From: a virus
Reading direction: 5' to 3' (one strand)
DNA length: 64,000 nucleotides
IMG/VR virus record: IMGVR_UViG_3300011115_000650
Shown here: positions 22,172 through 43,161 of the stretch, piece by piece
Layout: each line of letters begins with the position of its first letter
Numbering within the stretch: position 1 is the stretch's first letter
Program-made: the position numbers and the translations under genes
Notes under the pieces: model-generated
Seen by the model: the letters and a program-made list of their open reading frames with translations, nothing else
The model's database searches: none
What the model was told of the DNA's origin: nothing

Positions 22172-22203
22172 AAGAGAAGAGGTATATTAATAAATAGTGT
22201 AAA

Positions 22204-22231: not shown

Positions 22232-22249
22232 CTTTGTTTATTAATATGT

Positions 22250-23353: not shown

Positions 23354-23394
23354 GGTATGGTGAGCTTATTTAATATAAATATCTCACCTTTTGA

Positions 23395-23610
23395 TTAACA
23401 CCTTCCTCTTGTTCTACTTAAATGCTGGAGATGCTTTGCCGTTGAACTATCTCGTATGATCTGTAGGGAGTTAGTTGCCTTAGCATCTGCTATAATCAAA
23501 CCTGAATACCTTTCGGTTGAGGAATGATTGACACAGGTATCTGGATATCCTAATGCTACTCTCTTTGGGTGGATTACTGTTCCGCAAACTTTACATTGAT
23601 GTGTTGCCAT
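23395..23610 (-). CDS. DksA/TraR-like zinc-finger protein
   Basis: CKVCG..IHPKRVAL.YPDTCVNH. Confidence 0.55.
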   Translation of the reverse strand: MATHQCKVCGTVIHPKRVALGYPDTCVNHSSTERYSGLIIADAKATNSLQIIRDSSTAKHLQHLSRTRGRC

Positions 23611-23700
23611 GGTGTATAACTTTTATTTTACTAAAGATAAGAAAAAAGGACCAATTTTCCAACTGATCCTTTATCTTTTTTTCTATTGGGGAAGGGGGGA

Positions 23701-24546: not shown

Positions 24547-24615
24547 AACTGTATTTATTATGTTTTAATATTATATACTAAAGATATGAAGACATTTTCA
24601 GACTAGCAACTTTTT

Positions 24616-26722: not shown

Positions 26723-27898
26723 TTAAAGTAGCTGATTAGTATAGTAAGGTGAGTCTAATCTGATAAGTTCTTTTTCATGAGTCTTTAAATTATTAACTGT
26801 TACTCTAAAAATATCTAATTCGAATTCTCCAACCTCTCCTGATTCTTTTAGTATGTCTGGTAATTGCTGTAACATGTTAAACGAATTGTTAGTCAGAGAC
26901 ATAGCATCAAAATCAATCAAGATATAGTTTTGCTTCTCATTACCGTACGGTCTAATACGTTCCCTTAGGTTGAATTTTGTATTGGGCTGTTCTTTATTTA
27001 TATAGTCCTTATAATCACAATCTACATAAATTGTTGAACACCAAGGTTCAAGTACTTCTAATAGGTGTAGGTTACAGTTCCTAACCACAAAGCCGATATC
27101 GTACTTAGAAGGTATGATCGGATATTGGTAATCGTCGTTCTTAATCCAACTACCCCATTTACGCAAATAATTTCTACCTGCTTTAGCAGATACTACTTTA
27201 AAGTAATCGTCATCTTTACCCACTTGATCGTTCCATCTATGACCTCTGCAGGTTAGGTGGTAGACAAATGCATCTCTACTCTGGATTAATTCATACCCAG
27301 CTAATATCCATCTCTGAAAGATATCTGAGTCTTCATACGGGAATGGGGCAAACAAAGGATCATGTCCTCTTATAGCTTGAAAGTCTTCTTTGTAGAGTAT
27401 CCAGGGAGCAAACATTCCCTTAGTTGTTTTATCTTTTTCGTAACCGGCAATTGTATCTACATACTCTTCAAACATCTCTATATTCAAAGTATCGAAGTCT
27501 TGACCGAAATCTTTTACGATCTTCTCTTTACCTTCAGGGTGTAAAGGAGGTTCGATTCTAGTACCACAAACAACTGTACCCGGTTTTAGATGCTTAACCA
27601 TATTCTGAATATAGTTAGGGCCTAGAATCATATCAGCATGTAAGATACCAACTACATCGTTAGTAGCTTCTCTGATTCCAATATCGTATAAGATAGTATG
27701 ACCTACTCGAGTACTCCATCTCAAGTGTAGAACCTTGTCATCTGATTTAGCAATTTGCTGCATCCACTCCCAAGTACCGTCTGTGGACGCATCGTCTAAT
27801 AAAACAATTTCAGCTTCAGAGGCATGTTTCTTTATTGAAGCGTAGACGTTCTTAAGATGGTTAATGTTGTTATAACTCGGTATTATAAATGATATCAT
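26723..27898 (-). CDS. GT2-family glycosyltransferase
   Basis: SFIIPSYN, DDASTDGT, HADM, YEDSD. Confidence 0.85.
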   Translation of the reverse strand: MISFIIPSYNNINHLKNVYASIKKHASEAEIVLLDDASTDGTWEWMQQIAKSDDKVLHLRWSTRVGHTILYDIGIREATNDVVGILHADMILGPNYIQNMVKHLKPGTVVCGTRIEPPLHPEGKEKIVKDFGQDFDTLNIEMFEEYVDTIAGYEKDKTTKGMFAPWILYKEDFQAIRGHDPLFAPFPYEDSDIFQRWILAGYELIQSRDAFVYHLTCRGHRWNDQVGKDDDYFKVVSAKAGRNYLRKWGSWIKNDDYQYPIIPSKYDIGFVVRNCNLHLLEVLEPWCSTIYVDCDYKDYINKEQPNTKFNLRERIRPYGNEKQNYILIDFDAMSLTNNSFNMLQQLPDILKESGEVGEFELDIFRVTVNNLKTHEKELIRLDSPYYTNQLL

Positions 27899-27899
27899 A

Positions 27900-28589
27900 T
27901 TATTGTTTTTGGATTGTGAACCCCCATATTACATTTGGAGTCCATGGATTATATACTTGGTAGTAATCCGGGCTATTAATCTCCGGGGTAACTATCTCCC
28001 AATTGGTGAAGTCTTCTGAGTAGTAAAACTTTTCGTCTGTAATCTCGTAACCATTCCTCTTACACTCAGCTTTTATCAAACCCTGTCTTTGGTGGTTGTA
28101 GTACCGTAAAAAAGGTTCCCCCGATGTTTCGTAGTTCATATACGGCCCTGCAGGTAGAGTGATCATTAGTTTAGAATCTAGATCTTTTAATAGTTTACAA
28201 GCTTTATTAATACCTCTAAGATCGTGGTTCCAGTAACACTTATCATCTTCTGCTAAACCATTTGCCATTCTATTACCAGCAAACCAAAATCCAAAATGCT
28301 CAAATACCGATACTGATATAACATAGTCGTATTTATTCGATTCATCAAATTCAATAAAGTCGCTCTGTATATGCTTCCAGTTAGTATTCTCTCTCAACCA
28401 GCATCCCGGTTCCGAAGGCATAATGTCTGTAGTAGATACATTGGTAAAACCTTTTTCGTGAATAGTCTCTGAGACTCCTTCTATCCCTCCCTGACACTCG
28501 CCAATAATTAAAACTGTCTTTGTAACATCAGTAAGCTGATCTGCAAAGTAGGGGACTTCTACAATCTTTGTACCTGATAATTTTATCAT
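27900..28589 (-). CDS. SAM-dependent methyltransferase-like (DUF268-like)
   Basis: VLIIG, YDYVISVSVFEHFG, ITLPAG. Confidence 0.6.
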   Translation of the reverse strand: MIKLSGTKIVEVPYFADQLTDVTKTVLIIGECQGGIEGVSETIHEKGFTNVSTTDIMPSEPGCWLRENTNWKHIQSDFIEFDESNKYDYVISVSVFEHFGFWFAGNRMANGLAEDDKCYWNHDLRGINKACKLLKDLDSKLMITLPAGPYMNYETSGEPFLRYYNHQRQGLIKAECKRNGYEITDEKFYYSEDFTNWEIVTPEINSPDYYQVYNPWTPNVIWGFTIQKQ

Positions 28590-29308
28590 ATTTTATAATT
28601 TTCTCCGTACTGTCTTAGCTGTAAATACAGTAACCCCAGTTCAGAATTATTGAAATAGTTATACATATTTGTCTCAGCTAGTCTACAAAACTCACTTACT
28701 CCTATATTAATTTTATTTTGTTTAAAGGTCTGAGAGTTTAGATGACATATAGTATTAGTGTCTGACACAGTGGTTTTAATATTATTCTGTTCTGTAATAC
28801 ACCCTGCGTAGAAATCTAACCCCCATCCATAGATCAACTCATCAGGGAAGTGTTGTATCTTTTCTAGAACATCTCTTCTTATTAACGGACATTGAAAATC
28901 AACCCACCTTACTTCACGCAAACCCTTCCCCCAGTTCCACATCTGCTTCCAATGACATTGTTCAACTGAAGCATTTATAACAGATGGTGAGTATACACCA
29001 GCATCTGCACGACGTGCTTCTTTTAAGGAGGTCGTAAGGAATGATGGTCCGTGAAAAATTAAATCGTTATTTAAAAAATATAGGTAGTCGTGATTTGTTG
29101 TAAGGAAATATTCTAACACAACATTAAATCCTCCACCAAAGTATATGTTATTATCTAACTGGTGTGTGGTTGACTTAGCTAAAGTTTCTTTGGATCCATT
29201 ATCGACAACCATTAATTCACATTGATTAAATAGTGTATCTTTTTTTAACTGGTCTACTAAATTATCTGTTAGATCTGGTAGATTGTGGTTTAGGGTTGCT
29301 ATTAACAT
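28586..29308 (-). CDS. GT2-like glycosyltransferase
   Basis: VVDNGS, FGGGFN, FLNNDL, GWGLD. Confidence 0.75.
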   Translation of the reverse strand: MLIATLNHNLPDLTDNLVDQLKKDTLFNQCELMVVDNGSKETLAKSTTHQLDNNIYFGGGFNVVLEYFLTTNHDYLYFLNNDLIFHGPSFLTTSLKEARRADAGVYSPSVINASVEQCHWKQMWNWGKGLREVRWVDFQCPLIRRDVLEKIQHFPDELIYGWGLDFYAGCITEQNNIKTTVSDTNTICHLNSQTFKQNKINIGVSEFCRLAETNMYNYFNNSELGLLYLQLRQYGENYKI

Positions 29309-29310
29309 GT

Positions 29311-30147
29311 TTAGGTATATGGTGGTGATAGTTGATCAAAAGTATAATTCGTTTTATGTAAATGTAGATATTCCTTATAAGATACTAAATTATTTTCATT
29401 TAACCAACTACTATTTAGTTCTGATATGCTTTGGCCGTTCATATCAATTCCATTTGATAAGTAAGGGTAGTAACCTAATCTAGAAACAACGAAGGGAAAT
29501 ACTCCTTCAAAATAGTACCTATCTAATTTAGAATTAAACCATACATCCGTGATAAGCTCTAGGAATTTTTTAACTACGATTCTTTTAACAGCATACAAGG
29601 TATGTATATAGAAAAAGTTAGCATGCGTATAAGGTAGTGCATCTGTTAGAGTATTTTGAAATAGCGGTATTTCAGTATCCTGTTCTTGATAGTTGTTATG
29701 TTTGTTATAAGCTATACCGAGCATTCCATATGATCCTATACCAGTATGCTTATGTAAAAAAGTTTCTACGTTTGACCTATCGGATAAAAAACTATTAATG
29801 TACCATTCCCGTAAATAGTCACTATGAGAATTTACACCACTTTTAGTATGTATAAACCAATAAGTATCGTAATCAGTATTAGATTGCTTAACTAATTTAA
29901 GAGCAAGTTGATACGCAGATGCATCACTAAGTGTGTATAAACTTTCGGATACTCTTGCTAATCCTTTTATATTTAGATTTGAATTATTTATAAGATCCTC
30001 TACAGCTTGTGTAGAATTTGGATTAATGCCTACGTAAATATCACAATCTGAGAAGTCTTTCTTAAACTCGTCTAAGAAGTTTTGTAATACGAATAACCTA
30101 TCATCCGATAAGATAGTGCAGGCGAATATAACACAGCTCTGTTTCAT
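29311..30147 (-). CDS. RgpF-like glycosyltransferase
   Basis: WFIHTKS...REW, RYYFE. Confidence 0.5.
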   Translation of the reverse strand: MKQSCVIFACTILSDDRLFVLQNFLDEFKKDFSDCDIYVGINPNSTQAVEDLINNSNLNIKGLARVSESLYTLSDASAYQLALKLVKQSNTDYDTYWFIHTKSGVNSHSDYLREWYINSFLSDRSNVETFLHKHTGIGSYGMLGIAYNKHNNYQEQDTEIPLFQNTLTDALPYTHANFFYIHTLYAVKRIVVKKFLELITDVWFNSKLDRYYFEGVFPFVVSRLGYYPYLSNGIDMNGQSISELNSSWLNENNLVSYKEYLHLHKTNYTFDQLSPPYT

Positions 30148-30148
30148 T

Positions 30149-30763
30149 TTACTTCTTTGTTATAAATGCTATTGGGGATACGTTACCTTGTTCAACATTC
30201 ACAGTTTTAATATTTTGAAGCAGGTAGTTAATTTCTTCCTGAGTCATGCAAGTGCTTATTAATTCTCCTGTGCTGTTGTAATGGTGTAGCATTTGTAGTG
30301 TGTCAGTATCACCTGGTCTGGTATAGGCAGGGTTGCCTGATGTATGTAAATCTTCTACTACAAATATTCCGCCAGATTTTAAATACTTAAACATAGTTCC
30401 TAGAGTAATTTGTTGCTGATGCATCATATGCCCTCCATCGTCAATAATGATATCGAATTCCTTGTAAGATTTTTCTATAATAGCCTCTAAATCAGCTCTG
30501 ATAGATTGATCGCCTAGTAAGATTGTAGTATCTTTGAGTTTAATATGTGTTAGGTCTAATATATCTACTCCAACTAGGTTACCTACGTTAAAATAGTCTC
30601 TCCACATTCTAATACTCTCTCCTTGCCATAGTCCTATTTCTAGAAAGTTCTCTAGACTATCTCTATACTTACTGAAGTACTTTTCATAGATCTCTAAATA
30701 GTTGTGGTAAACTGCTCCTTTGTCTGATTTATAGCCTAAGCTAATTTCTTCTAATGTTTTCAT
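30149..30763 (-). CDS. Sugar O-methyltransferase (MycE/TylE-like)
   Basis: SDK...HNY..IYE, LEIG...GES..MW, GDQS, FDIIIDDGGH, GGIFVVEDL. Confidence 0.75.
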   Translation of the reverse strand: MKTLEEISLGYKSDKGAVYHNYLEIYEKYFSKYRDSLENFLEIGLWQGESIRMWRDYFNVGNLVGVDILDLTHIKLKDTTILLGDQSIRADLEAIIEKSYKEFDIIIDDGGHMMHQQQITLGTMFKYLKSGGIFVVEDLHTSGNPAYTRPGDTDTLQMLHHYNSTGELISTCMTQEEINYLLQNIKTVNVEQGNVSPIAFITKK

Positions 30764-31545
30764 AAATTAAAGTTATAAATTGATTGTAAACCTATTCCTA
30801 GATATTGTTTAGATATTTTATCTGTAGTATAATTATAATGTTTATCAAAATCGTATTGATGTGTATAGTGGTAATTTTTAAATAAAGGGCCTTTTGGCAT
30901 TAGCCTAATTTCTTGAGTTGCTAACAACCACTCTCCATACCAGGTGAATTCAGATCCATTTACATTAATTAAGTCTACAAAAGTTAAGTTATTTGGAACT
31001 AGGTAGTTATCGTTAAGACTCTTCCAAACTTTACTTGACCACACTGTAGGACCTGGTCCAAAATCATATATTACTCCTTTCCTTCCAAATAGTTCCATTA
31101 TCTGCAATCTCTCTTTTGTGAATGATTCATAAGGATCAAACCCTAATGGATGTTTATCCATAAATTCAAAAAAGGACTTGTACTCATGACAGATTGTATA
31201 AGGAGTATCCTCATCAAACATAAAATCCGATATTGAGAACGGCTTAATAAAAAAGCAATCTGAATCGATACATAGGTAGTTTTCACATAAATCTAATTTC
31301 CAGAATTGACTCTTAACTATTTGCTGTCCTTTCCACCCTTGATTTGAGGTATCTATATCCTCATCTCTAAGTAACGTATAGTCTTTCTCTCCCAGTACTG
31401 TTCTAAATAATTCAAGATCTTTGGTAGGTACCGATATGTAGAAAGGAATCTGGTCTACGTTGTACCTGAGAATACTGTCTAGGAGCTGTTTTACCCTATC
31501 TACATCTTTGTCATAGGACTTGCAATAAAGTACTATCTTACTCAT
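30760..31545 (-). CDS. GT-A-fold nucleotide-sugar transferase-like (DUF6492-like)
   Basis: GWKGQQIVK, YLCIDSD (DxD), SEFTWYG. Confidence 0.55.
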   Translation of the reverse strand: MSKIVLYCKSYDKDVDRVKQLLDSILRYNVDQIPFYISVPTKDLELFRTVLGEKDYTLLRDEDIDTSNQGWKGQQIVKSQFWKLDLCENYLCIDSDCFFIKPFSISDFMFDEDTPYTICHEYKSFFEFMDKHPLGFDPYESFTKERLQIMELFGRKGVIYDFGPGPTVWSSKVWKSLNDNYLVPNNLTFVDLINVNGSEFTWYGEWLLATQEIRLMPKGPLFKNYHYTHQYDFDKHYNYTTDKISKQYLGIGLQSIYNFNL

Positions 31546-32170
31546 AGTATGTTATAATTTTGAATGATTCGACAAAACCTTTCCCTTTTTTCATACATTG
31601 AAAGTTTGTATGGAATCCATCTAGTACTTCACTATTAAAATAAGGTTTATCTATCTGTGATTTGAACCCCTGTAGCATACTCTTCTTCGTTTCGTAAACA
31701 TCGTCAAGAGATACGAATAAGTTTGGTTCCCAGGCATCTAATGTAGATGGCGATCTATATTGAATTATGCTGTAAGGAGTCGCTCTCGATAACGGGGCAG
31801 CTAATGAAGAAACCGACACATGTTCGTGGTGACTGTCAAACTCTGAGGTAATAAGTATACATTCATACTTATTTTTATAAGCGTAGGTGTCCTCAATGTA
31901 CTTTACCCACTCGTCAATGCCCCTAGTTCTAAATACAGGAACATCGCTAAAGTAGAGGCTGTAATTAGTTACTCCGCTTCTTGACCAAGCATCTTTAACT
32001 TCCTGATGACGTGCTTGACCTGTTGTAGTATCGCAGTAACCACCTTCTGTTAAACAAAGGATATCAAAATGTGTACCTGGGTGCTTTAGCACTGCACCTG
32101 CCATGCTATATTCGGCATCATCCGGGTGAGGAGCTAAACATAATGCTCTATTAAAATTTAAAAACTTCAT
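31538..32170 (-). CDS. PIG-L/LmbE-family N-deacetylase
   Basis: APHPDDAE, DSHHEH, FKSQ. Confidence 0.8.
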   Translation of the reverse strand: MKFLNFNRALCLAPHPDDAEYSMAGAVLKHPGTHFDILCLTEGGYCDTTTGQARHQEVKDAWSRSGVTNYSLYFSDVPVFRTRGIDEWVKYIEDTYAYKNKYECILITSEFDSHHEHVSVSSLAAPLSRATPYSIIQYRSPSTLDAWEPNLFVSLDDVYETKKSMLQGFKSQIDKPYFNSEVLDGFHTNFQCMKKGKGFVESFKIITYYE

Positions 32171-33018
32171 TATTTTCTTTTTAAGTTAAATAAAAATCCA
32201 TGTGGTGCAAATAACCTTATACCGTATCTTCTTAGAAAATCTCTAAAAGCATCTGAGACTGTATCGTGTTCTCCTGTATAGGTGATTTTTTCCACGTTAA
32301 TAGTTAGCTCATTTACTTTAATAAAAGGGTACTCCATTTCAAAGGTAAAATTCTCAACCTTGTAGTAAGAAATTAACTTTATAAATTCTTTTTTAATTGT
32401 ATCAAATATACTGTGTTTGTCTTCTAGGGAAGGTTCTTCAACCATTTTAACTAGCTTTGCAGGAGCACCGACATAGATGCCTTTAGGTGTTGTTAGAGAC
32501 TTAGTTACGGTAGCTTGAGCGCCAATGACTACATTATCTGTAATATCTACTCCACTCATAATAACTGTCTTCCATCCTACAATAACATTGTTACCTATTG
32601 TAACTCCTTGAAATAATCTAGGGTAACCTTCTAAGACGGATGCCCAAAAGCCATGTGTAATAATATCTACATCGTGAGATAGTCCTACATCGTCTCCAAT
32701 TGTGACTGGACAAGCTAGATTAATATGTCCTGTGTGACATACCACTCTATTACCTATTTTTAATTTAGCGTCAGGAAATCCTGCTGCTCCTCCTCCGATA
32801 AACATTCCTCTCGAGTCGGTCGGAACATTAAAGAAATAATCTCCGATAATAATCTCTTCAGCATTAGCTCTAAATCGATCTCCTACTACACTATTAGCTC
32901 CTATTTGAAACTTACCTCTAACTCTAATATCTATATCTCTACCGTATTTAAAATTATCTCCTAATATAATTTCACTACCTTCAATATGTACATTTTTTTC
33001 TTTATCTTCAAATACCAT
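32170..33018 (-). CDS. Hexapeptide-repeat (LbH) acyltransferase
   Basis: VTIGDDVGLS..V.IITH, VTIGNNVIVG, VVIGAQATVTKS, GAPAK. Confidence 0.85.
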   Translation of the reverse strand: MVFEDKEKNVHIEGSEIILGDNFKYGRDIDIRVRGKFQIGANSVVGDRFRANAEEIIIGDYFFNVPTDSRGMFIGGGAAGFPDAKLKIGNRVVCHTGHINLACPVTIGDDVGLSHDVDIITHGFWASVLEGYPRLFQGVTIGNNVIVGWKTVIMSGVDITDNVVIGAQATVTKSLTTPKGIYVGAPAKLVKMVEEPSLEDKHSIFDTIKKEFIKLISYYKVENFTFEMEYPFIKVNELTINVEKITYTGEHDTVSDAFRDFLRRYGIRLFAPHGFLFNLKRK

Positions 33019-33665
33019 TATATAATCCCTCCACTTATGTTAATATTCTGTCCAGTAATATACGAAGTTTTTATCAAATAATCAACTGTATTATAAAGCT
33101 CTTGAATACTTCCCCATCTTTTTGCTGGGATATTATTTTTGATAGTCTCTCTAAAAGACTCTGGAATTTTATAGGTCAGTCCTCCATCAAAGTATCCTAA
33201 CTGTAAACTATTACAAGTTACATTCTTTCCTATATTTTCTAATGCAACTGTTTTTGTAAAACTGTCTACAAATCCTTTACACCCTGAATATATACTTGTG
33301 CTTATAACTGGATGGTCTGCTAGTACTGATGAGAGTAATACAATTCTTCCATACTGTTTCTCTCTCATTTGAGGTAATGCACAAGAGGTTACGTTTATAG
33401 TTCCTTTGATATTAATATCAATTTGTTTTAGTACCTCAGAGTAACTATCTTCTGTATACTTATGTAAGAAACTATCGTAGTTATATCCACTTAAGTTAAT
33501 TAGTATATCAACTTCGTTCGTATTAAAAAATGACTGTACAGCAGCGTAATTAGTTACGTCTACATCTTTAGAACCTACTGCAATTATGCTATAGTGTTCT
33601 TTTAATAAGGGGACTAGTTGACTTCCTAACCCTCCTGTTCCTCCAAATAGTGTTATCGTTTTCAT
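33018..33665 (-). CDS. FabG-like short-chain dehydrogenase/reductase
   Basis: GGTGGLG, GRIVLLSS, YSGCK (YxxxK), IPAKRWG, YITGQNINISGG. Confidence 0.8.
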   Translation of the reverse strand: MKTITLFGGTGGLGSQLVPLLKEHYSIIAVGSKDVDVTNYAAVQSFFNTNEVDILINLSGYNYDSFLHKYTEDSYSEVLKQIDINIKGTINVTSCALPQMREKQYGRIVLLSSVLADHPVISTSIYSGCKGFVDSFTKTVALENIGKNVTCNSLQLGYFDGGLTYKIPESFRETIKNNIPAKRWGSIQELYNTVDYLIKTSYITGQNINISGGII

Positions 33666-34348
33666 TTTATTTCAATTTTGCTAGACCAGTTACTACTCTC
33701 CCTATTCATATGTTGTATGTAGTGCTTCTCATCTTCTGGAAGATTTTCTGGATCATAGTAGAAAGGAGCATGTTTTACTATGTAAGGAGTTCCTACTCTT
33801 AATGTATCGTTACTCCAATCTGGCATAGTACCCGGTGCATGAACTGCAAATGTGGTATCTATAGGATGTGGATATAACCATATATCTCCATCTAATATAC
33901 CATTTGTCCAGTAATCAGATTCGTATCCGTGCACCCATTTGTTAAGTGGGTAGTTTAGATCAATATCATCTATCCTGATTGACATGCCTACTTTAGACTT
34001 ACTGTACTTAGTAGCATAGTTAATTAAATCTCCAATAAAGTTATCAGGTACTTGTTCCTCAGGAATTATATCACTGTCATTAAACACATACCAGTTCGAT
34101 ATTAGTTTTATAAATTTTGGATGGCCTGCCTGTACTAGTTGCAAAAAAGCTTTACTACTATTCGGAACGATATCGTTAACAAAGACATCGACTCCTGATA
34201 TTTTATACCAGTCTAATAACGGCTGATATGTAGATTGATTATCTATGATTACTATGTTGGTATAACCTTTTTTCTGTAGAATCTTCACCTGTTCTACTAG
34301 TGGATGTAACCTATCTCTGTTTAAAATGACTATTGGTGTATGTTTCAT
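33662..34348 (-). CDS. GT2-like glycosyltransferase
   Basis: IVILNRDR, IIDNQST, FNDSD, IDTTFA. Confidence 0.65.
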   Translation of the reverse strand: MKHTPIVILNRDRLHPLVEQVKILQKKGYTNIVIIDNQSTYQPLLDWYKISGVDVFVNDIVPNSSKAFLQLVQAGHPKFIKLISNWYVFNDSDIIPEEQVPDNFIGDLINYATKYSKSKVGMSIRIDDIDLNYPLNKWVHGYESDYWTNGILDGDIWLYPHPIDTTFAVHAPGTMPDWSNDTLRVGTPYIVKHAPFYYDPENLPEDEKHYIQHMNRESSNWSSKIEIK

Positions 34349-34354
34349 ATTAAT

Positions 34355-35293
34355 TTATTTTTTCCATTTAATAAGACCAGCTCCCCAGGTCCATCCTGAT
34401 CCAATTGATGCTAGTAACACTGTATCTCCATCTACTACTTTTCCTGACTTAACTAATGTATCTAATGCAATTGGAATAGACGCGGCAGCTGTATTAGCAT
34501 ACTTATCCATAACTGTAATTACTTTCTCAAAAGGAAGTCCTACTTTATCCGCAACAACTTCTAACATTTTTATCCCCGGTTGATGTGGAACTAAAAAAGC
34601 TACTTTGTCAATTGGTATGTTATTTGTTTGGAGTATATCGTTAATTGCAATTGGTAGATTATTGGTACCTGTTTCAAAAACTGCTTTACCATTCATTTTA
34701 AACTTACCTCCTATAGGAGTAGTAAAGGCTTCTTTACCTCTTCCATCTGAATAGATCTTTGTAGTTATCCATCCTTCATCTGATTTAGATAATACAACTG
34801 CTCCAGCTCCGTCTCCAAAGTATACACAATCCCTACTCTCCTTATTTGTAATTTTAGAATACGTTTCAGAAGCTATGAGTAAGATATTTCTATATGCTCC
34901 AGCTTCTATGAGAGGAGTTGCTATATTTAATCCATATAAAAACCCTGAGCATACTGCATTAACATCGAAACTTGGACAGCTTACTTCTAACTTCTCTGCT
35001 ACAATACAAGCAGTCGATGGAGATATTCTATCTGGACTCGAAGTAGCTATTATCATAAGATCTATTTCATTCTTACCTAATCCTGAGTCTTCAATAGCTT
35101 TTAGAGCTGCTTTATAAGCTAAATCAGACGTTAGTTCGTTATTTGCTGACCATCTCCTCTCCTTTATTCCTAAATGATTTTCTGTCCACTTTGCATTCGC
35201 TCCATACCAAGTTTCTAACATTTCATTAGTTACAATTGCATCAGGCAGGTATGAACCAATTCCAGCAATATTTACGTTATATTTTTTACTCAT
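34355..35293 (-). CDS. fabH: 3-oxoacyl-ACP synthase III (KAS III)
   Basis: GSYLP, GIKERR, catalytic C (AVCSGF), FGDGAGA, H (VPHQ), N (ANTAAAS), G.GWTWG. Confidence 0.9.
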   Translation of the reverse strand: MSKKYNVNIAGIGSYLPDAIVTNEMLETWYGANAKWTENHLGIKERRWSANNELTSDLAYKAALKAIEDSGLGKNEIDLMIIATSSPDRISPSTACIVAEKLEVSCPSFDVNAVCSGFLYGLNIATPLIEAGAYRNILLIASETYSKITNKESRDCVYFGDGAGAVVLSKSDEGWITTKIYSDGRGKEAFTTPIGGKFKMNGKAVFETGTNNLPIAINDILQTNNIPIDKVAFLVPHQPGIKMLEVVADKVGLPFEKVITVMDKYANTAAASIPIALDTLVKSGKVVDGDTVLLASIGSGWTWGAGLIKWKK

Positions 35294-35294
35294 A

Positions 35295-36146
35295 TTAATA
35301 CTGTGCTATCATTCCGTATTCATCAAATATAGGCATTTTCCCCCATTTCTCCAACCATTTAGTAGTATTTTTTTCTTCTGCTTTTTTTTGTCTTTGAGAT
35401 GATTGACCTCCATTTTCTTCTAATCTATGAGAACCTCTTGCTCCAAAGTGCCATACTATAGAACTAAGTGGTAGTACAAACCTAACCCCATGCTGTAACA
35501 TTCTTAAAAATAAATCCATATCGTCCCAAGACGTCGGAGCAAATCTAGGATCGTTACCTCCTACTTCATTCCACACAGACTTTTTAACCAGTCCTGATAC
35601 TCCTTCTCCTTTTGGAATTTCAAAGTATTCATTTATCTCTTTAAATTCTTCGATCCAATTCTCAAATGCTTGAGCTAAAAAGCTATCATGATAACATCCG
35701 AAAATATCTTTGCTTACTATAGTGGTTCCCGGTCTCTGAGGAGATCCAAACATATCCGGTTCTATTCTATATGAATTAACCCATAACTTTTCTTCTGGAT
35801 ATGCTTGATGTATCTTTAGCAATTCAATATCCCAGTCCTTAGTGACATAAAAATCTGAATGAAGAAAATTAATATATTCGGTCTCTACTCTTTCAGCACA
35901 GAAATTCATTCCCCCTCCAATTCCTTTCGGTAAATCTGTATGAATATCTATATAATGTGTGATATTGTAGGCTTTTGCATTTTCTACTAACCATTCATTC
36001 GTACCATCAGTACAATTTTCAGCATGTATAATAAAAGAAGCGTCTTTAAAGTAGCTGTTCTTTCTTACCGACTCTACTGCTAATTTTAGATACGGTAGGT
36101 TATTATATGTTGATATACAATGTGTTACCGGGTTAGAAGGTACCAT
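35295..36146 (-). CDS. GT2-family glycosyltransferase
   Basis: ISTYN, CTDGT, HSD, WDDMD; paralogous to 26723. Confidence 0.8.
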   Translation of the reverse strand: MVPSNPVTHCISTYNNLPYLKLAVESVRKNSYFKDASFIIHAENCTDGTNEWLVENAKAYNITHYIDIHTDLPKGIGGGMNFCAERVETEYINFLHSDFYVTKDWDIELLKIHQAYPEEKLWVNSYRIEPDMFGSPQRPGTTIVSKDIFGCYHDSFLAQAFENWIEEFKEINEYFEIPKGEGVSGLVKKSVWNEVGGNDPRFAPTSWDDMDLFLRMLQHGVRFVLPLSSIVWHFGARGSHRLEENGGQSSQRQKKAEEKNTTKWLEKWGKMPIFDEYGMIAQY

Positions 36147-36768
36147 AATAGTTATTTTGTTTTTCTTGTCTTTGAATTGTCTTAGGATGAATTAAATCTA
36201 ATCCATGATAGGTTGGAAATACTTCTCCTAATAGTAACTCAGTAGATTGTAATCTCTCATGCACCCTACCATACCATTGAATATCTTTCCTATTCTTACA
36301 TAACCTGGTTTGATAGTCTGGATAGTTGATCCAGTTTTTATCGTTTAGATTCCATCCCCATTTCTTAATATGTTCATGAGTTATACCTTCTACTGTATTG
36401 ATTCTTGGTATCAAGAATACATCGTGGTTAGGATTAAGGTCTAAGATCTCAGGAAGATTCCCTAGTAAGTCTTTTCCTAAATACTCATCAGCATCTATGA
36501 AAAAGATATAATCCCTTGTACAATGATTCTTTAGATTGTTTTTAAATGTAGCAAAGTCTCCATTTAGTCCAAAGTATATTCTATGGTATTCGTATTTACT
36601 ACCTACGTTGTATTTAACCGCTACCTCTTTTACTTCTTCGGTAGCAGTATTATCTAATTGAACTACTATTTCATCTTCGGGTCTAATATGTTCGTTTAAT
36701 TGGTCTAGTAGCCGTTCTAGTTCTTGATGTTCATTACAGGCCGTAATTGCATAACTGATTGATGGCAT
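36133..36768 (-). CDS. GT2-family glycosyltransferase
   Basis: ISYAITACNE, FIDADE, PDYQ.R, VHE. Confidence 0.85.
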   Translation of the reverse strand: MPSISYAITACNEHQELERLLDQLNEHIRPEDEIVVQLDNTATEEVKEVAVKYNVGSKYEYHRIYFGLNGDFATFKNNLKNHCTRDYIFFIDADEYLGKDLLGNLPEILDLNPNHDVFLIPRINTVEGITHEHIKKWGWNLNDKNWINYPDYQTRLCKNRKDIQWYGRVHERLQSTELLLGEVFPTYHGLDLIHPKTIQRQEKQNNYYGTF

Positions 36769-36771
36769 AGA

Positions 36772-37236
36772 TTACTTCTTTTTAGATTCTTGTACGTCAA
36801 AAAATCCAATATAGCCTAGAGCTTCTATGAAATCTTTACCGAAGAACTTCATCGTCGAAGCATCTGATTTAAACTTGATGCCTTTATTGGCTAGTTGTTT
36901 CTTTTCTTCTGTGGTTAGTTTTCTAACCTGTATACCACACCACTCTACTAATCCTGATTGAGGACTGATGCCTAAAAAGACTGTACCCTTCTCAGGGAGG
37001 TTAATTGTGTTGGGGTACCAGATCCTCCCCTCTTCATCGATATGTTTGATGTCTTTGTATAACTCCGGTAGAGTTTCTTCGTAAGCCTCTATATCAAATT
37101 CGTCTACAGTCTGAGCATCAGTGGTTGAACACCCACAGCTAAAACAGTAGTAGCTGAATAAGGTTTCGTTGAGGGGGGACTTATAACAAGCATCCCCCTG
37201 GCATTTTGGACATAATATTAATGTATCTTTTTCCAT
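36772..37236 (-). CDS. Zn-ribbon hypothetical protein
   Basis: CPKC...CFSCG. Confidence 0.55.
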   Translation of the reverse strand: MEKDTLILCPKCQGDACYKSPLNETLFSYYCFSCGCSTTDAQTVDEFDIEAYEETLPELYKDIKHIDEEGRIWYPNTINLPEKGTVFLGISPQSGLVEWCGIQVRKLTTEEKKQLANKGIKFKSDASTMKFFGKDFIEALGYIGFFDVQESKKK

Positions 37237-37237
37237 G

Positions 37238-38545
37238 TTAATCTATCTTTTTCAATTTTGGTAGTTCGATCTTCTTTAGAGTCGGTAGTTTTAAGATTAC
37301 AGGTTTAGTAAACTTCTCTTCTACGATCTTACCCAATACTTCGGTCATAGCCTCTAGAGAGAATTCAGTCTTGGCTTTGTGTGCCTGTCTTTTACCTGAG
37401 GTCTCAAACTTCTTATAATCATCAAATACCGTCTTCCACATTCCTTTTAGTGCTATGTCATCGACTTGGAACCAACTCGACTCCTTAATCAACATATTCG
37501 GTACTACAGAAGAAGGATGTAGTGGGTGTAGCTGGCCAGGCAATAAAAAGCTAAATTGCGGATCAAGGAAATCCAGCTGACCAGACCACCCTGAAGCGAT
37601 GACCAATTTCTTAGATTGTGTAAATTCTAATAATGGTCTTCCGTATCCCTCTCCTTTTGTAATAGATACCATCGCTCTTACCTTTGGATGATTATATAAA
37701 TCATTCATATCCTTATCATCCACCTCTCCATGTAGTACGTAGATTGAAGGTAGATCACCTTTAATAGACTTCCTGATGATGTCTATCTTTCTTAGTATCT
37801 CATCTCGGTCCATTATCGAAGCACCTGCTTGAGAGGTCTTTAGTACTAATGCCGGTCTAGATTTCTTATTCTTATATGCTTCCAGGAATGATTTAATCAT
37901 ATAGCCTACATTCTTTCTATCATGACCAATCTCTCCTTGCATCCAATGCCCTACGAATAGAAAGCAGAAATCCTCTTTTATATTATCTAATGTATGGACT
38001 AATTCTGTCTTTTCCAACTTTTCTTGATAGAAATATTTTGTTACGTCTAATCCTTCAAACAATACTTCAACCGGTTTCTCTAACTTAACCTGCTTTATAG
38101 GCTGGCCGTTCTGGTCCTGGATTGTAAAGTTAGCTTCTTGGAATACTTTTTGGGCATGCTTAGAAGATACTAGGGTTAGATTCATTCTATTTATACCCTC
38201 CACCCATGATGGGTCACAGATCGTAGTCTCAATACCTGCTGTCAGGCCTAGATTAAAGGTCTTACCTACGGGTTGGAATTCATTAGGTACAGTAATCTGT
38301 ATCCAATACTCAGGCTGTTTAGGTAATTGGTTACCTTGTAGGATTAGAGGTTGCATCCATCCCCATTCCTCTTTATTCTTTTCTATAAAATTCCATGGAG
38401 TCGCTCCCCATCTCTGAGATAGTATCTTAATCTCCCATTCCTCTTTCTTTAATGTGTAGAGTGCTTTAATGAAATCTCTACTACGTGCACCATACCCAGA
38501 ATAAGTATCTGGGCAGGCTGATATAACGCATAACGGTTTGTTCAT
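37238..38545 (-). CDS. GT4-like (GT-B) glycosyltransferase
   Basis: SGYG, DRKN, GEGYGRPLLE, SGQLDF. Confidence 0.85.
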   Translation of the reverse strand: MNKPLCVISACPDTYSGYGARSRDFIKALYTLKKEEWEIKILSQRWGATPWNFIEKNKEEWGWMQPLILQGNQLPKQPEYWIQITVPNEFQPVGKTFNLGLTAGIETTICDPSWVEGINRMNLTLVSSKHAQKVFQEANFTIQDQNGQPIKQVKLEKPVEVLFEGLDVTKYFYQEKLEKTELVHTLDNIKEDFCFLFVGHWMQGEIGHDRKNVGYMIKSFLEAYKNKKSRPALVLKTSQAGASIMDRDEILRKIDIIRKSIKGDLPSIYVLHGEVDDKDMNDLYNHPKVRAMVSITKGEGYGRPLLEFTQSKKLVIASGWSGQLDFLDPQFSFLLPGQLHPLHPSSVVPNMLIKESSWFQVDDIALKGMWKTVFDDYKKFETSGKRQAHKAKTEFSLEAMTEVLGKIVEEKFTKPVILKLPTLKKIELPKLKKID

Positions 38546-38688
38546 ATTTTTAATGTTTTTACTTTTATTAGATTGATGAGTTCTTCAAAGGTACCTACAG
38601 TTTCAACCTCTTCATCTTTTATTTCAATACCGTACTTAGATTCAATAAGCTGTAGTATTTCAATTTTGTATACTATATTCTCTTCCAT
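38542..38688 (-). CDS. 48-aa acyl-carrier-protein-like mini protein lacking the DSL serine (not in track)
   Basis: MEENIVYKIEILQLIESKYGIEIKDEEVETVGTFEELINLIK aligns to ACP helices II-IV; its stop overlaps the next ATG (ATGA). Confidence 0.65.
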   Translation of the reverse strand: MEENIVYKIEILQLIESKYGIEIKDEEVETVGTFEELINLIKVKTLKI

Positions 38689-38703
38689 ACCTATAGTAAT
38701 TAC

Positions 38704-40146
38704 CTAATAAGTTAGTTTGTGTCTGATTTGTTTTTTAGGTATATCTTTTACTTCGATGAATTGGAAGCTTGGACGAGGTTTAAACGTTGTAAATGTCTCT
38801 TCTAGAGTCTCGATAACATTCTCACACATATGAGGTGATGTCATCTTGGCTTCAGAGGACATAACCCATTCTCTCCCTTTCATTCCCTTTGATTCTCTAA
38901 TGCTTTTAGGTAGGTTGTACACTTGTTCTATTGCTTGAGCTACCTCTCTAAAATCACATCTATCATCGAAAATATAAGGTGTAGGTACCGAACCTACTAG
39001 TGATAGATTTGAAGGGAAGACCGGTACCGCCCACTCACCACACTTCTTATAAGTACCGAAGTGATTGGAACAAAAGTTTTCGTCGAAGTCTATCCAATTA
39101 CCCTCCTCATCTTCAAACCTCATCTGATCTTGCATACCACCGGTTACGTTACCGATGATCATAGTACCTGTGATTAGAGATTCGGTTAGAGATAATCCCC
39201 ATCCTTCATTCGAAGATATCAAAGCAGTAACATCAGCTAGATTGTATAGGTAGTTCATCTCCTGTACCCCGTACACCTTATCGGTTATTACAACGTTACA
39301 GAGTTCTGGATCACATAATAGGTCTTTGACTGCAAGTAGATCGGTTCCATTCTCGTCTACCGGTTGGGTGTGTAGTAGTAGGACACATTTCTTAGCCTTC
39401 TCCTCACCAATCTTTTCACAAAACTGTCTATAAGCTAGTATTAGATCGGAGGTAGATTTCCTACGTATGTTTCTTGCATTATAAAATACTACATACTCGT
39501 AATCCTTCTCTCCGAATACAGTCTTTTTGAAGGCCGTAAACCGGTCGTTTTGTTCCTTATCTGTCTTATCGATAGGATAGAAGTGTTTTGGATTAATACC
39601 ATGTGGTATATACCTCAATACCTTCCCCTCTTGTTTAGGTCCTAGGACTAGCTTATTAATGTTTAGGGTCTGTTTTGAAATCGCCATCAAAGCATCACAA
39701 GATTCATAGTAGGGTTCATTATAGAGAGGTGCTGGTAGATCATCCCAGATGTTTAGATAGATCATCGGGATCTTTCTTCTAATCTCATTCTCCATCTGAA
39801 ACAACCATATCCAGTATCTTGGATCGGTGAAGAACATAATAGCATCTGGTTTCTCTATATCTATCAATTGACGGATAACTTCTGGAGAACCATACCCATT
39901 GTGTGGATACATGATGATTGAAGAATCTTCGATGTCGTTATGACCATTAGTGTCTAGGGAGAGATCTAGTCTCTTACCATGCTCGGGGTGATTAATGCCC
40001 GCTCCTAGATTAACCCAATTAAATCGGTGTGAGGTTCCGACCACGATCTCTCTTGCCATGGTAGCGATTCCAGATTGCATTCTGATATCGTCAGATAGTA
40101 ATAAGATCTTCTTACGTTGTTGTTGAGGTATGTACCCTGCTTTCAT
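38704..40146 (-). CDS. GT4-like (GT-B) glycosyltransferase
   Basis: SGIATM, RNIRRK, NEGWGLSLTES, TGGMQDQ. Confidence 0.85.
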   Translation of the reverse strand: MKAGYIPQQQRKKILLLSDDIRMQSGIATMAREIVVGTSHRFNWVNLGAGINHPEHGKRLDLSLDTNGHNDIEDSSIIMYPHNGYGSPEVIRQLIDIEKPDAIMFFTDPRYWIWLFQMENEIRRKIPMIYLNIWDDLPAPLYNEPYYESCDALMAISKQTLNINKLVLGPKQEGKVLRYIPHGINPKHFYPIDKTDKEQNDRFTAFKKTVFGEKDYEYVVFYNARNIRRKSTSDLILAYRQFCEKIGEEKAKKCVLLLHTQPVDENGTDLLAVKDLLCDPELCNVVITDKVYGVQEMNYLYNLADVTALISSNEGWGLSLTESLITGTMIIGNVTGGMQDQMRFEDEEGNWIDFDENFCSNHFGTYKKCGEWAVPVFPSNLSLVGSVPTPYIFDDRCDFREVAQAIEQVYNLPKSIRESKGMKGREWVMSSEAKMTSPHMCENVIETLEETFTTFKPRPSFQFIEVKDIPKKQIRHKLTY

Positions 40147-40183: not shown

Positions 40184-40375
40184 TTAAATGCTACCGGTAT
40201 AATAGGTATTCAAAGTATTGTTGATCATAGACCTGAATTCAGGATCTGTGACATACAAGTACATCGACCTATCGGTTAGCTTTTGTAGGGATAGCTTTGT
40301 TCTTACACAAGCTACCTTAAAATCGTCAAATAGCTGTGTATTGACTTTTACCGAGGTTAGTTGTTGTTCTTTCAT
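40184..40375 (-). CDS. Small ribbon-helix-helix-like protein
   Basis: LTSVKV...LFDDFK..C...LSLQKL. Confidence 0.45.
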   Translation of the reverse strand: MKEQQLTSVKVNTQLFDDFKVACVRTKLSLQKLTDRSMYLYVTDPEFRSMINNTLNTYYTGSI

Positions 40376-43033: not shown

Positions 43034-43161
43034 AACGTTTTTATTTTTTAAATACTGATGCGATTAATTTTTCTATTGCTTGATAGTCTATTTCCATAAC
43101 TATTTGTTTATATACTATAACTAAAGATAAGAACTGTTCTTCATATAACCAACTTTTTTTT

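Follow-up and report, generated by a model that had tools for sequence, protein, structure and literature searches.

Why does a large freshwater Flavobacterium-type phage carry fatty-acid-type enzymes in the middle of a block of glycosyltransferase (GT) genes, and on what would the products of such a block act? We examined this for IMG/VR virus record IMGVR_UViG_3300011115_000650, for which a stretch of 64,000 nucleotides, hereafter the window, was analysed. The original prediction, made from the sequence alone, described positions 26723-40146 as one tightly coupled minus-strand operon with about nine GT-like genes, an intact KAS III (FabH), a FabG-like short-chain reductase (SDR), an LbH (hexapeptide) acyltransferase, a PIG-L deacetylase and two methyltransferases, and proposed that the phage removes an N-acetyl group and installs its own (hydroxy)acyl group on a methylated glycan attached to virion proteins, DNA or the host surface. 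The described gene content was confirmed, with the exception of the second methyltransferase. The proposed function was supported only in part, because the enzyme assignments and the deacetylate-then-reacylate logic fit everything we tested, whereas the chemistry is still inferred and the target is narrowed rather than shown.

We first asked whether the genes are what they appear to be. All of the named genes are at the stated coordinates on the minus strand, and neighbouring genes overlap by 1-14 nt or are 1-6 nt apart. Profile searches with Pfam and NCBIfam, together with PHROG, PDB and structure-neighbour searches, gave the assignments collected in Table 1.

Table 1. Features of the glycan locus, in window coordinates, with the observations on which each assignment rests (Pfam and NCBIfam scores are given against their cut-offs).
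Coordinates	Strand	Feature	Length	Observations
38704..40146	-	Frame gene 1: GT4 glycosyltransferase with an E-x7-E motif	480 aa	Pfam Glycos_transf_1 31.0 against 26.4; best solved relative chlorovirus B736L, 3oy2; 41-98% identical in all 17 related phage loci, in immuto and in Microcystis phage Mel-JY01
38545..38688	-	ORF resembling ACP helices II-IV, without the phosphopantetheine serine; a 159-bp insertion specific to this phage	48 aa	Pfam PP-binding E 0.021; only hit of an AcpP HMM among 2398 ORFs (E 7e-4, HMM positions 41-76); absent from the 97%-identical sibling L005 and from L001-L003
37238..38545	-	Frame gene 2: GT-B-like glycosyltransferase with an E-x7-E motif	435 aa	PHROG 2170 glycosyltransferase, E 1e-10; weak NCBIfam match; present in all related loci
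36772..37236	-	Frame gene 3: zinc-ribbon protein	154 aa	C9, C12, C31 and C34 invariant; model pLDDT 87, no fold match except its own orthologue; no longer fused forms found
36133..36768	-	Frame gene 4: GT2; left cassette breakpoint at its 3' end, about 36155	211 aa	Pfam GT2 43.0 against 23.3; nucleotide identity with the sibling contig ends at 36155
27899..36154	-	Swappable cassette, 11 genes	8256 bp	Unrelated 8357-bp cassette in the sibling contig (L005 plus L100); contigs in one metagenome run (X6) diverge at 36145 and 36177
35295..36146	-	Cassette GT2	283 aa	Pfam GT2 47.1 against 23.3
31538..35293	-	Five-gene module, proposed to make an acyl-aminosugar; absent as one unit from L014		In L014 the homologue of the 283-aa GT2 directly abuts the DUF6492 homologue; in L003 the same five genes are contiguous, in a slightly different order
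34355..35293	-	FabH (KAS III) with C115, H237 and N267	312 aa	Both KAS III domains; TIGR00747 292.6 against 292.1; NF006829 319.6 against 249; best solved relative S. aureus FabH, 1zow, E 3e-68; no PHROG family matches
33662..34348	-	GT-A-like protein inside the module, proposed HexNAc transferase	228 aa	ESM Atlas cluster labelled 'Glyco_tranf_GTA_type', 94% viral; DSD motif visible; no Pfam or PHROG hit
33018..33665	-	Short SDR ketoreductase	215 aa	Pfam adh_short_C2 94.9; best solved relative acetoacetyl-CoA reductase 4kms, E 1.8e-25, followed by many FabGs, with Ser and YxxxK aligned; far below the FabG equivalog cut-offs
32170..33018	-	LbH acyltransferase with a conserved C-terminal alpha/beta domain of about 85 aa	282 aa	Pfam hexapeptide hits; MAT/GAT, OatWY and LpxD the nearest structures; more than 120 full-length homologues at least 62% identical
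31538..32170	-	PIG-L/LmbE-family de-N-acetylase	210 aa	Pfam 39.4 against 28.2; BshB1 model E 8.6e-12; AHPDD and HxxH metal motifs kept
30760..31545	-	DUF6492 protein	261 aa	Pfam 36.9 against 22.9
30149..30763	-	Probable SAM methyltransferase	204 aa	Methyltransf_31 and Methyltransf_24 below the gathering score, E 3e-5 and 1e-4
29311..30147	-	GT-A-like protein (RgpF/WbsX-like), a lead only	278 aa	ESM Atlas structure neighbours, TM 0.60-0.67
28586..29308	-	GT2-like/DUF707-like protein	240 aa	Sub-threshold Pfam hits; 72-80% identical in L003 and L014
27900..28589	-	Protein predicted originally as a methyltransferase, unverified	229 aa	No Pfam, NCBIfam or PHROG hit; best PDB hit E 0.48
26723..27898	-	Frame gene 5: terminal GT2; right cassette breakpoint at its start codon	391 aa	Pfam GT2 82.9 against 23.3; 95% nucleotide identity with the sibling contig resumes at 27898
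56985..58148		ThyA		PCH and FNIASY motifs kept
L005 and L100 together make up the contig of a sibling phage; L001-L003, L006 and L014 are related phage loci.

The Cys-His-Asn triad of FabH is real and was invariant in 10 homologues. Of the roughly nine GT-like genes, four are firm, as they pass Pfam cut-offs (the GT4 and the three GT2s with full scores in Table 1), and five rest on weaker evidence: the GT-B-like frame protein by its PHROG family and motif, the GT2/DUF707-like protein by sub-threshold matches, the DUF6492 protein by that family alone, and the 228-aa and 278-aa proteins only by ESM Atlas leads.

The block is not a chance collection of genes. The whole operon recurs at 45-80% amino-acid identity in three other viral contigs, and error-free pieces of it occur in four sequencing runs from four studies. 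More than 100 FabH homologues and more than 120 LbH homologues at 55-90% identity were found on contigs up to 165 kb, and the cassette occurs in virus-particle metagenomes and in independent freshwater and river metagenomes. We also considered whether the block is inert cargo, that is, a recently captured, unexpressed fragment of a host capsule locus. The search for RNA data found none for this phage; however, the nearest cellular proteins are only 38-51% identical, which is not the near-identity to a host locus that had been named beforehand as grounds for rejecting the prediction. In addition, the operon is kept at 45-90% identity across many phage contigs with catalytic residues invariant, its G+C content matches the rest of the window, and its genes are intact and translationally coupled. 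We regard this possibility as remote.

We next compared the locus with its relatives, which revealed the main structural point that the original prediction had missed: the block is a conserved frame around a swappable cassette of 8.3 kb. The frame consists of two GT4 enzymes (the second identified by sequence only as GT-B-like), the zinc-ribbon protein, a GT2 and the terminal GT2. The sibling contig is 95-98% identical in nucleotides from window position 45262 down to 36155 and again from 27898 down to about 12187, but between those points it carries unrelated genes: GT11, UDP-galactopyranose mutase (Glf), RmlD-like, FkbM methyltransferase, GT17-like and GT2. The cultured phage immuto has the same frame at the same site, with a cassette of a WecE aminotransferase, a PglB-like acetyltransferase and an epimerase. 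Eight more loci carry cassettes with GDP-mannose-dehydratase-type enzymes, RmlD, DegT, GT10/GT11, FdtA and formyltransferase, and contigs within a single metagenome diverge at the left breakpoint.

Within the cassette, FabH, the 228-aa GT-A-like protein, SDR, LbH and PIG-L behave as one insertion/deletion unit, because L014 has the same cassette backbone without these five genes. The order FabH-SDR-LbH recurs in a second, divergent phage cassette, that of L006, at 47% identity. A homologous run, PIG-L-FabH-SDR-LbH, sits in a polysaccharide locus of an Ignavibacteriales bacterium (L020), whose LbH is 38% identical to the phage enzyme over its full length, and a Prolixibacteraceae capsule-type locus (L019) has the order FdtA-FdtA-FabH-SDR-(314-aa ORF)-DegT-Wzx. 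The nearest cellular relatives of the module lie in capsule or O-antigen loci of FCB-group bacteria. In proteobacterial hits, by contrast, the SDR match lies about 1.1-1.2 kb beyond fabH rather than abutting it, which we read, from the spacing alone, as the housekeeping fabH-fabD-fabG operon.

These observations bear on the possibility that the functions are uncoupled: the LbH enzyme would simply be an O-acetyltransferase using acetyl-CoA, while FabH and the SDR would top up 3-hydroxyacyl or fatty-acid supply in the infected cell or make a small diffusible molecule. Consistent with this view, the best family and structure matches of the LbH enzyme are sugar O-acetyltransferases (maltose/galactoside, OatWY), its model is mediocre (pLDDT 69), and it cannot be assigned to N- rather than O-acylation. 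No thioesterase or ligase links the steps, and no intact ACP is encoded in the window or in eight related phage records, so that the acyl carrier must be the host's ACP or CoA. Moreover, L006 has no PIG-L in its 74-kb record, indicating that the deacetylase is not obligatorily tied to the acyl genes. On the other hand, FabH, SDR and LbH are adjacent in the same order in two divergent phage cassettes and in a bacterial locus, they are lost together with PIG-L and a GT-A in L014, and in the best bacterial hits FabH-SDR pairs sit inside amino-sugar pathways (FdtA/DegT) and not in fatty-acid operons. We consider the uncoupled reading unlikely.

What, then, is the acceptor? Modification of a host surface polymer is the usual reading of "LPS/cell-wall" auxiliary genes in aquatic phages: the enzymes would act on the host's lipid-linked O-antigen or capsule intermediates during infection, for example to block superinfection or to stop progeny adsorbing to debris. 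In favor of this, the acyl module's cellular relatives sit in capsule or O-antigen loci, cassette variability could track host serotypes, and the island lies among DNA-metabolism genes (PD-(D/E)XK nuclease, HNH) and not in a structural operon. However, none of the island proteins scored has a transmembrane segment (the 480-aa GT4 was left out of this count), and no priming transferase, flippase (Wzx), polymerase (Wzy) or ligase appears in this cassette or among the 25 commonest Pfam families of 75 proteins from eight other cassettes. This argument is limited, since the GT2 and GT4 enzymes of bacterial surface loci also lack membrane segments, and peripheral GTs of this kind can still work on host lipid-linked intermediates. 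The frame (nuclease, GT4, GT-B, GT-A, methyltransferase, GT2) also recurs in a Microcystis cyanophage, whose host envelope is unrelated to that of Flavobacterium, and near-identical phages, presumably with the same host range, carry unrelated cassettes. Host envelope remodelling is thus disfavored, although it remains the leading alternative.

A second possible acceptor is a modified base of the phage genome, which would help evade restriction. Phages glycosylate their DNA with varied glycans (Pyle et al. 2024, as cited in PMC12619734), the island sits next to a nuclease and other DNA-metabolism genes, and cassette diversity could reflect an arms race with modification-dependent nucleases. However, LC-UV-MS/MS of the DNA of immuto, which has the same frame GTs, showed canonical dA, dC and dT plus fdPreQ1 in place of dG, and no glycosylated nucleoside was seen (PMC10516641), although these data could miss bulky adducts that resist digestion and they concern a different cassette. 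The ThyA of our phage is an orthologue (52%) of that of immuto and keeps the thymidylate synthase motifs, as originally noted for FNIASY, and no hydroxymethylase or kinase lies in the island. About nine GTs plus methyl and acyl tailoring also far exceeds any known DNA glycan. We regard DNA as a very unlikely target.

Several known systems resemble parts of the locus. The mycobacteriophages Che8, Corndog and Myrna reportedly glycosylate their virions (Freeman et al. 2023, as cited in PMC12619734) using operons of soluble GTs, with methyltransferases in some, that build a glycan in the cytoplasm, there on capsid and tail-tube subunits; our phage has a Bacteroidota-type host, far more genes (16-17), the frame-plus-cassette architecture and the FabH/SDR/LbH/PIG-L module, and its island is not beside structural genes. 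Giant viruses (chlorovirus capsid glycans, including the GT B736L, and mimivirus fibril sugars) also encode host-independent, soluble glycosylation systems with methylated and amino sugars, and ESM Atlas neighbours of the 278-aa protein include Nucleocytoviricota clusters, but these are viruses of eukaryotes for which no ketosynthase-based acyl group and no cassette swapping between near-identical genomes are known to have been described. Bacterial O-antigen and capsule serotype loci, including L019 and L020, share conserved flanks with a swapped central region, the same enzyme repertoire and the PIG-L-FabH-SDR-LbH module, homologous at 26-51% identity, whereas the phage locus lacks the Wza, Wzz, Wzx and Wzy functions and the priming transferase, and no membrane protein was detected in it.

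The proposed logic of deacetylation followed by acylation is that of lipid A (LpxC, then LpxD with 3-hydroxyacyl-ACP), mycothiol and bacillithiol (MshB/BshB, then acylation) and teicoplanin (Orf2*, then an acyltransferase). Every characterised PIG-L family member (MshB, BshB, PIG-L, teicoplanin Orf2*, archaeal Dac) deacetylates a GlcNAc glycoside, not a nucleotide sugar, and in mycothiol, bacillithiol and teicoplanin synthesis this step is followed by N-acylation. The phage deacetylase belongs to the family of MshB, BshB and Orf2*, and its acyltransferase is an LbH enzyme like LpxD, whose donor is a 3-hydroxyacyl group, as is proposed here. However, none of the phage proteins reaches an equivalog cut-off for LpxD, BshB1 or FabG, the acyl chain would be short, from one FabH condensation, and the acceptor would be a glycan and not a lipid or a thiol precursor. 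The LbH N-acyltransferases AntD (anthrose) and FdtD/QdtC, which put acetyl or 3-hydroxybutanoyl-type groups on amino sugars, appeared among the fold neighbours of the phage enzyme at Z 10.9-11.3, but they tied with O-acetyltransferases and LpxD in this search; they act on dTDP-sugars and have no PIG-L partner, and the phage enzyme has the extra conserved C-terminal domain.

Taken together, our analysis establishes the gene identities, the frame-and-cassette architecture, the modular inheritance of the five genes, their kinship with bacterial polysaccharide-locus modules and the solubility of the products (as far as they were scored). The order of reactions, N- rather than O-acylation, the chain length, the use of host ACP and the acceptor are inferred; no acceptor protein has been identified, and no chemistry has been measured for any member of this phage group. 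The interpretation that we favor, somewhat more likely than not, is a phage glycan-assembly locus built like a bacterial serotype locus. In this view, the conserved frame lays down a core sugar chain on an acceptor that the phage itself supplies, most likely a virion protein, and the middle cassette, exchanged whole between otherwise near-identical phages, decides how the chain is extended and decorated. In this phage the cassette would hold a self-contained five-gene unit that adds one N-(3-hydroxyacyl) amino sugar: the 228-aa GT-A enzyme would add a HexNAc, the PIG-L enzyme would remove its N-acetyl group on the assembled glycoside, FabH would condense a short acyl-CoA primer with the host's malonyl-ACP, the SDR would reduce the 3-oxoacyl product to 3-hydroxyacyl (C4 from acetyl-CoA, or a short branched chain), and the LbH enzyme would transfer that group to the freed amine. 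Further GTs and at least one methyltransferase would then finish the glycan. The cassette most likely swaps the acetyl group of an amino sugar for a short 3-hydroxyacyl group.

The DNA analyzed here is part of a large tailed phage in which nearly all ORFs lie on the minus strand, and it carries six tRNA genes, GroEL, ThyA and a recombination nuclease. The G+C content is uniformly low (0.29-0.40) with no step at the glycan island. The closest cultured relative is Flavobacterium phage vB_FspM_immuto (160 kb), with which GroEL is 56% identical, ThyA 52%, and the two large glycosyltransferases 62% and 52%. Exact copies of the FabH and LbH proteins lie on a 156-kb contig, whereas the island had no nucleotide match in the phage collection. 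The tblastn hits of FabH in that collection were at most 38% identical, and most of them lie in unannotated short records and look like host fragments. Elsewhere in the window, the thymidylate synthase is 387 aa, about 100 residues longer than the Pfam model because of internal insertions that are shared with immuto and with two uncultured phages of more than 600 kb. A 155-aa protein contains an Ala/Thr/Tyr-rich tandem-repeat tract encoded by 9-nt repeats.

Coordinates of the island and of other features in the window and in related loci
Feature	Sequence	Coordinates	Strand
Glycan island, 17 ORFs	window	26723-40146	-
Protein originally called a second methyltransferase	window	27900-28589	-
Five-gene acyl module	window	31538-35293	-
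48-aa ACP-like ORF	window	38545-38688	-
63-aa ORF upstream of the first glycosyltransferase	window	40184-40375	-
Ser/Thr-rich, fibre-like protein	window	22250-23353	-
Segments with the promoter-like motif	window	5196-24611, 43121-43154, 51927-51960	-
155-aa repeat protein	window	51309-51776	-
9-nt repeats within its gene	window	51360-51525	
Thymidylate synthase (ThyA)	window	56985-58148	-
GIY-YIG homing-endonuclease-like gene	L005, sibling phage	8623-9375	
Two extra ORFs between nuclease and GT4-480	L005, sibling phage	4206-5835	
Capsule-type locus with FabH-SDR	L019, Prolixibacteraceae MAG	7161-11747	
Capsule-type locus with FabH-SDR	L020, Ignavibacteriales MAG	7331-10499	
GT4-480 orthologue annotated as two ORFs	L099, Microcystis phage Mel-JY01	9025-10516	

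The original prediction described a tightly coupled operon of glycosyltransferase-like genes interleaved with FabH, a FabG-like reductase, a hexapeptide acyltransferase, a PIG-L deacetylase and two methyltransferases, and our analysis confirmed this observation, except that the second methyltransferase found no support. In the island, which has 17 minus-strand ORFs counting the 48-aa one, neighbouring ORFs overlap by 1-14 nt or are 1-6 nt apart. Family searches confirmed FabH, an SDR, a hexapeptide acyltransferase, a PIG-L deacetylase, a probable methyltransferase and four glycosyltransferases above Pfam thresholds, and five further GT-like assignments rest on weaker evidence.

FabH has both KAS III domains (PF08545, 88.5 against a cut-off of 24; PF08541, 99.6 against 26.6) and passes two NCBIfam subfamily cut-offs, NF006829 (319.6 against 249) and, only just, TIGR00747 (292.6 against 292.1). 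Its Cys-His-Asn triad (C115, H237 and N267) is invariant in an alignment of ten phage and bacterial homologues and aligns with S. aureus FabH 1zow, with which the protein aligns end to end. FabH matched no PHROG family. The SDR (adh_short_C2, 94.9) keeps the catalytic Ser, Tyr and Lys, as the Ser of SSV and the YSGCK motif align with acetoacetyl-CoA reductase 4kms, its best solved relative, which is followed by many FabGs. However, it is only 215 aa, residues 1-33 do not align with FabG models, and it scores 116 against the TIGR01830 equivalog cut-off of 297.75; it is FabG-like but should not be filed as FabG. The PIG-L protein scores 39.4 against 28.2 with PF02585, and its zinc-binding motifs APHPDDAE and HHEH align with the archaeal diacetylchitobiose deacetylase.

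The acyltransferase belongs to the LbH enzymes: the Pfam Hexapep match is just under the cut-off (25.5 against 27), but phmmer gives E 8e-11 to maltose O-acetyltransferase and a fold search places it among LbH enzymes at Z 11-14. LpxD models score about 24-29 bits against cut-offs of 207-242. Its structural model was of modest quality (pLDDT 69). Foldseek returned nothing below E 1e-3, and VIA-align tied O-acetyltransferases, LpxD and sugar N-acyltransferases at an rmsd of about 12 Å; the fold search did not separate N- from O-acylation.

We searched viral contigs with FabH and with the 435-aa glycosyltransferase (GT-435), which gave 17 related loci. A presence/absence matrix showed that five genes occur throughout almost all of them, the PD-(D/E)XK nuclease, GT4-480, GT-435, the 154-aa zinc-ribbon protein and GT2-211, and that everything downstream varies. 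The model of the zinc-ribbon protein was good, but it had no fold match in PDB or BFVD beyond its own orthologue, and no longer fused relatives were found.

The clearest case is a sibling contig (L005, continued as L100). It is 96-98% identical in nucleotides to the window from 45262 down to 36155, then shares nothing for 8357 bp, and is 95% identical again from window 27898 onward for at least 15 kb. The breakpoints coincide with gene boundaries, namely the GT2-211/GT2-283 junction and the start codon of the terminal GT2. The sibling's cassette encodes GT11, UDP-galactopyranose mutase, DUF3431, an RmlD-like reductase, GT2+DUF5672, an FkbM methyltransferase, a GT11-like protein, a GT17-like protein and a GT2. 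The sibling also has a GIY-YIG homing-endonuclease-like gene inserted between GT-435 and the zinc-ribbon gene and two extra ORFs between the nuclease and GT4-480, all three of which the window lacks.

Phage immuto has the same frame at the same site, between the nuclease and an HNH gene, but its cassette holds WecE-type aminotransferases, a methyltransferase, a mannosyltransferase, a PglB-like acetyltransferase and an epimerase. A Pfam census of 75 proteins from eight more cassettes listed GDP-mannose-dehydratase-type enzymes and epimerases (13), GT2 (10), RmlD (9), DegT (5), FkbM (4), PglF-like (3), GT11 (3), GT10 (3), nucleotidyltransferases, FdtA and a formyltransferase. In one freshwater metagenome, contigs that match the frame run into unlike sequence exactly at 36145 and 36177, although each is a single contig and this support is weak. 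The island is therefore a serotype-like locus, in which a conserved frame surrounds an 8.3-kb exchangeable cassette. We could not find this architecture, the larger finding of the analysis, described in the searchable literature.

Within the cassette, FabH, the 228-aa GT-A-like protein, the SDR, the LbH enzyme and PIG-L behave as one unit. A related viral locus, L014, shares the cassette backbone (GT2-283 at 58% identity, DUF6492 at 52%, the GT2-like 240-aa protein at 72% and the terminal GT2 at 62%), but its GT2-283 homologue directly abuts the DUF6492 homologue and the five genes are missing. In another FabH-bearing contig, L003, the five genes are contiguous, with the GT-A ahead of FabH. 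A second, divergent cassette, in L006, again has FabH-SDR-LbH in that order, with FabH and SDR 47% identical to those of the window and an LbH of 180 aa, next to a UDP-GlcNAc 2-epimerase and a PhyH dioxygenase; no PIG-L occurs in that 74-kb record.

To trace the origin of the module, 185,579 species genomes were scanned with a FabH alignment, and the best hits (46-51% identity) were in FCB-group and neighbouring bacteria. In the Ignavibacteriales MAG (L020) the order is PIG-L, FabH, SDR, LbH, the LbH being 276 aa and 38% identical over its full length, C-terminal domain included, and the genes sit among sugar amidotransferase, HisH/HisF-like, DUF354 and Wzi-like genes. In the Prolixibacteraceae MAG (L019), FabH-SDR sits between two FdtA isomerases and a DegT aminotransferase inside a Wza-Wzz-Ugd...Wzx locus, which is the context of an N-acylated 3-amino-3,6-dideoxyhexose. 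Neither of these capsule-type loci has an ACP gene, and they are probably uncharacterised pathways for N-(3-hydroxyacyl) amino sugars in FCB-group bacteria. In the lower-ranking proteobacterial hits the SDR match lies about 1.1-1.2 kb beyond fabH rather than abutting it, which we read, from the spacing alone, as the housekeeping fabH-fabD-fabG operon. The phage module is thus a diverged relative of a bacterial polysaccharide-tailoring module, not a recent capture.

The interpretation originally offered, that the phage removes an N-acetyl group and installs its own (hydroxy)acyl group on a methylated glycan, is partly supported: it is plausible and strengthened by the modular and comparative evidence, but unproven. 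Whereas the gene assignments, the frame with its cassette and the behaviour of the five genes as a unit were read from the sequence comparisons, each step of the following scheme is inferred, including condensation of acyl-CoA with malonyl-ACP by FabH, its primer specificity and the acyl donor of the LbH enzyme. In this view, the module's own GT-A would add a HexNAc and PIG-L would remove the acetyl group on the glycoside; all family members characterised so far (MshB, BshB, PIG-L, Orf2* and archaeal Dac) act on glycosides. FabH would then make a 3-oxoacyl thioester by a single condensation, the SDR would reduce it, and the LbH enzyme would transfer the 3-hydroxyacyl group to the amine in the manner of LpxD. 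The weakest link is the LbH enzyme, whose best sequence matches are sugar O-acetyltransferases. Literature searches linking 3-hydroxybutanoyl sugars with FabH, or phage auxiliary genes with fabH, gave nothing useful.

We next asked if the phage supplies an acyl carrier. PF00550 found nothing in eight related phage records, and an AcpP HMM built from 30 bacterial loci hit only the 48-aa ORF in the window. This ORF matches only ACP helices II-IV and has Asn where the phosphopantetheine serine should be, and it is a 159-bp insertion between the two GT4 genes, absent from the 97%-identical sibling and from the other FabH-bearing contigs. It was rejected as a working carrier because it lacks the serine and helix I and is absent from these relatives, but it could be a remnant of an ACP gene or a degenerate ACP-like protein. 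No intact ACP is thus encoded, and the carrier would be host ACP or CoA.

As for the acceptor, the island proteins scored and the Pfam hits showed none of the membrane components of a Wzx/Wzy-dependent surface polysaccharide locus. No 19-residue window exceeded Kyte-Doolittle 1.6 in any island protein scored, a set that did not include GT4-480, and no priming phosphoglycosyl transferase, flippase or polymerase appeared among the Pfam hits for the island or among the 25 commonest families of the other cassettes in the census. The frame recurs in Microcystis phage Mel-JY01 as nuclease, GT4, GT-B, GT-A, methyltransferase and GT2, and the GT4 pair has tblastn matches of 25-32% identity in an uncultured 484-kb phage and in Rhodothermus phage RM378. 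The acceptor is therefore unlikely to be a host-specific surface glycan. The Mel-JY01 orthologue of GT4-480 is annotated as two ORFs (573 and 909 nt), which is either a split gene or a sequencing or annotation frameshift; no paper on this phage was found.

Glycosylation of DNA, as in T-even phages, is also argued against, although the evidence is indirect for this phage. LC-UV-MS/MS of immuto DNA showed canonical dA, dC and dT plus fdPreQ1 only (PMC10516641), and the ThyA of the window is an orthologue of immuto's and keeps the thymidylate synthase motifs. A phage-made protein acceptor, most plausibly on the virion, remains the best reading by analogy with mycobacteriophages and giant viruses, but it is not shown. 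The glycosyltransferase genes do not lie in or beside a virion structural operon; the structural genes lie outside the window, and the neighbours of the island are a PD-(D/E)XK nuclease, small ORFs and an HNH endonuclease. The most Ser/Thr-rich ORF of the window, 3.4 kb downstream, encodes a repeat-rich, Gly/Ser/Thr-rich, fibre-like protein with 32% Ser+Thr overall and 63% in its richest 30 residues. It had no Pfam or PHROG hit and no match in the phage collection, and it was not in the parts of the related loci that were examined, so that it is only a candidate acceptor.

To look for the control of the island, we counted the abundant promoter-like motif of the phage, AGTTG-N-TWNNTTTAG, which has 38 copies in the window against 0.5 expected by chance. 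None lies between 24612 and 43120, an 18.5-kb stretch that includes the island, so that the island is not driven directly by this class and must use read-through or another promoter class. A sigma-70 promoter/terminator scan was uninformative, with fewer promoter-like sites than in shuffles. Just upstream of the first glycosyltransferase lies a 63-aa ORF that is 95% conserved in the sibling contig, with a 183-bp ORF at the same place in immuto; its N-terminal pattern, judged by eye only, suggests a ribbon-helix-helix regulator. No RNA dataset was listed as containing the cassette. Error-free contigs of the cassette occur in virus-particle metagenomes and in freshwater and river metagenomes from other studies and years, and more than 100 FabH clusters and more than 120 LbH clusters of this type exist in metagenomes.

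Virus-encoded glycosylation is established for chloroviruses, mimiviruses and mycobacteriophages but is hardly explored in the large phages that dominate fresh water. The locus shows three things that are open to direct test because the cultured phage immuto has the same frame. First, phages keep a conserved glycan-building frame across hosts as distant as Flavobacterium and Microcystis. Second, the tailoring cassette is exchanged whole between genomes that are otherwise 95-98% identical, which is the signature of diversifying selection on an exposed structure. Third, a fatty-acid-synthase-type pair, FabH and a ketoreductase, has been recruited together with a deacetylase and an LbH transferase as a portable unit, by inference for an N-acyl amino sugar, and the same unit in uncharacterised bacterial capsule loci would be explained at the same time.

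One further reading, which we regard as tentative, is that abundant freshwater phages display strain-variable "glycotypes" on their particles, combining a conserved glycosylation frame with whole-cassette exchange between near-identical genomes as in bacterial O-antigen switching, and that one cassette uses a virus-encoded ketosynthase and ketoreductase to hang a 3-hydroxyacyl (lipid A-like) amide on a virion glycan. As far as we could find, that would be the first viral acyl-glycan made by a FabH-type enzyme, and it would also imply that something in nature, such as host defences, grazers or adsorption surfaces, selects on phage surface sugars. If the glycan is on the virion, phage "serotypes" would become a variable to consider in phage ecology and in adsorption and decay studies.
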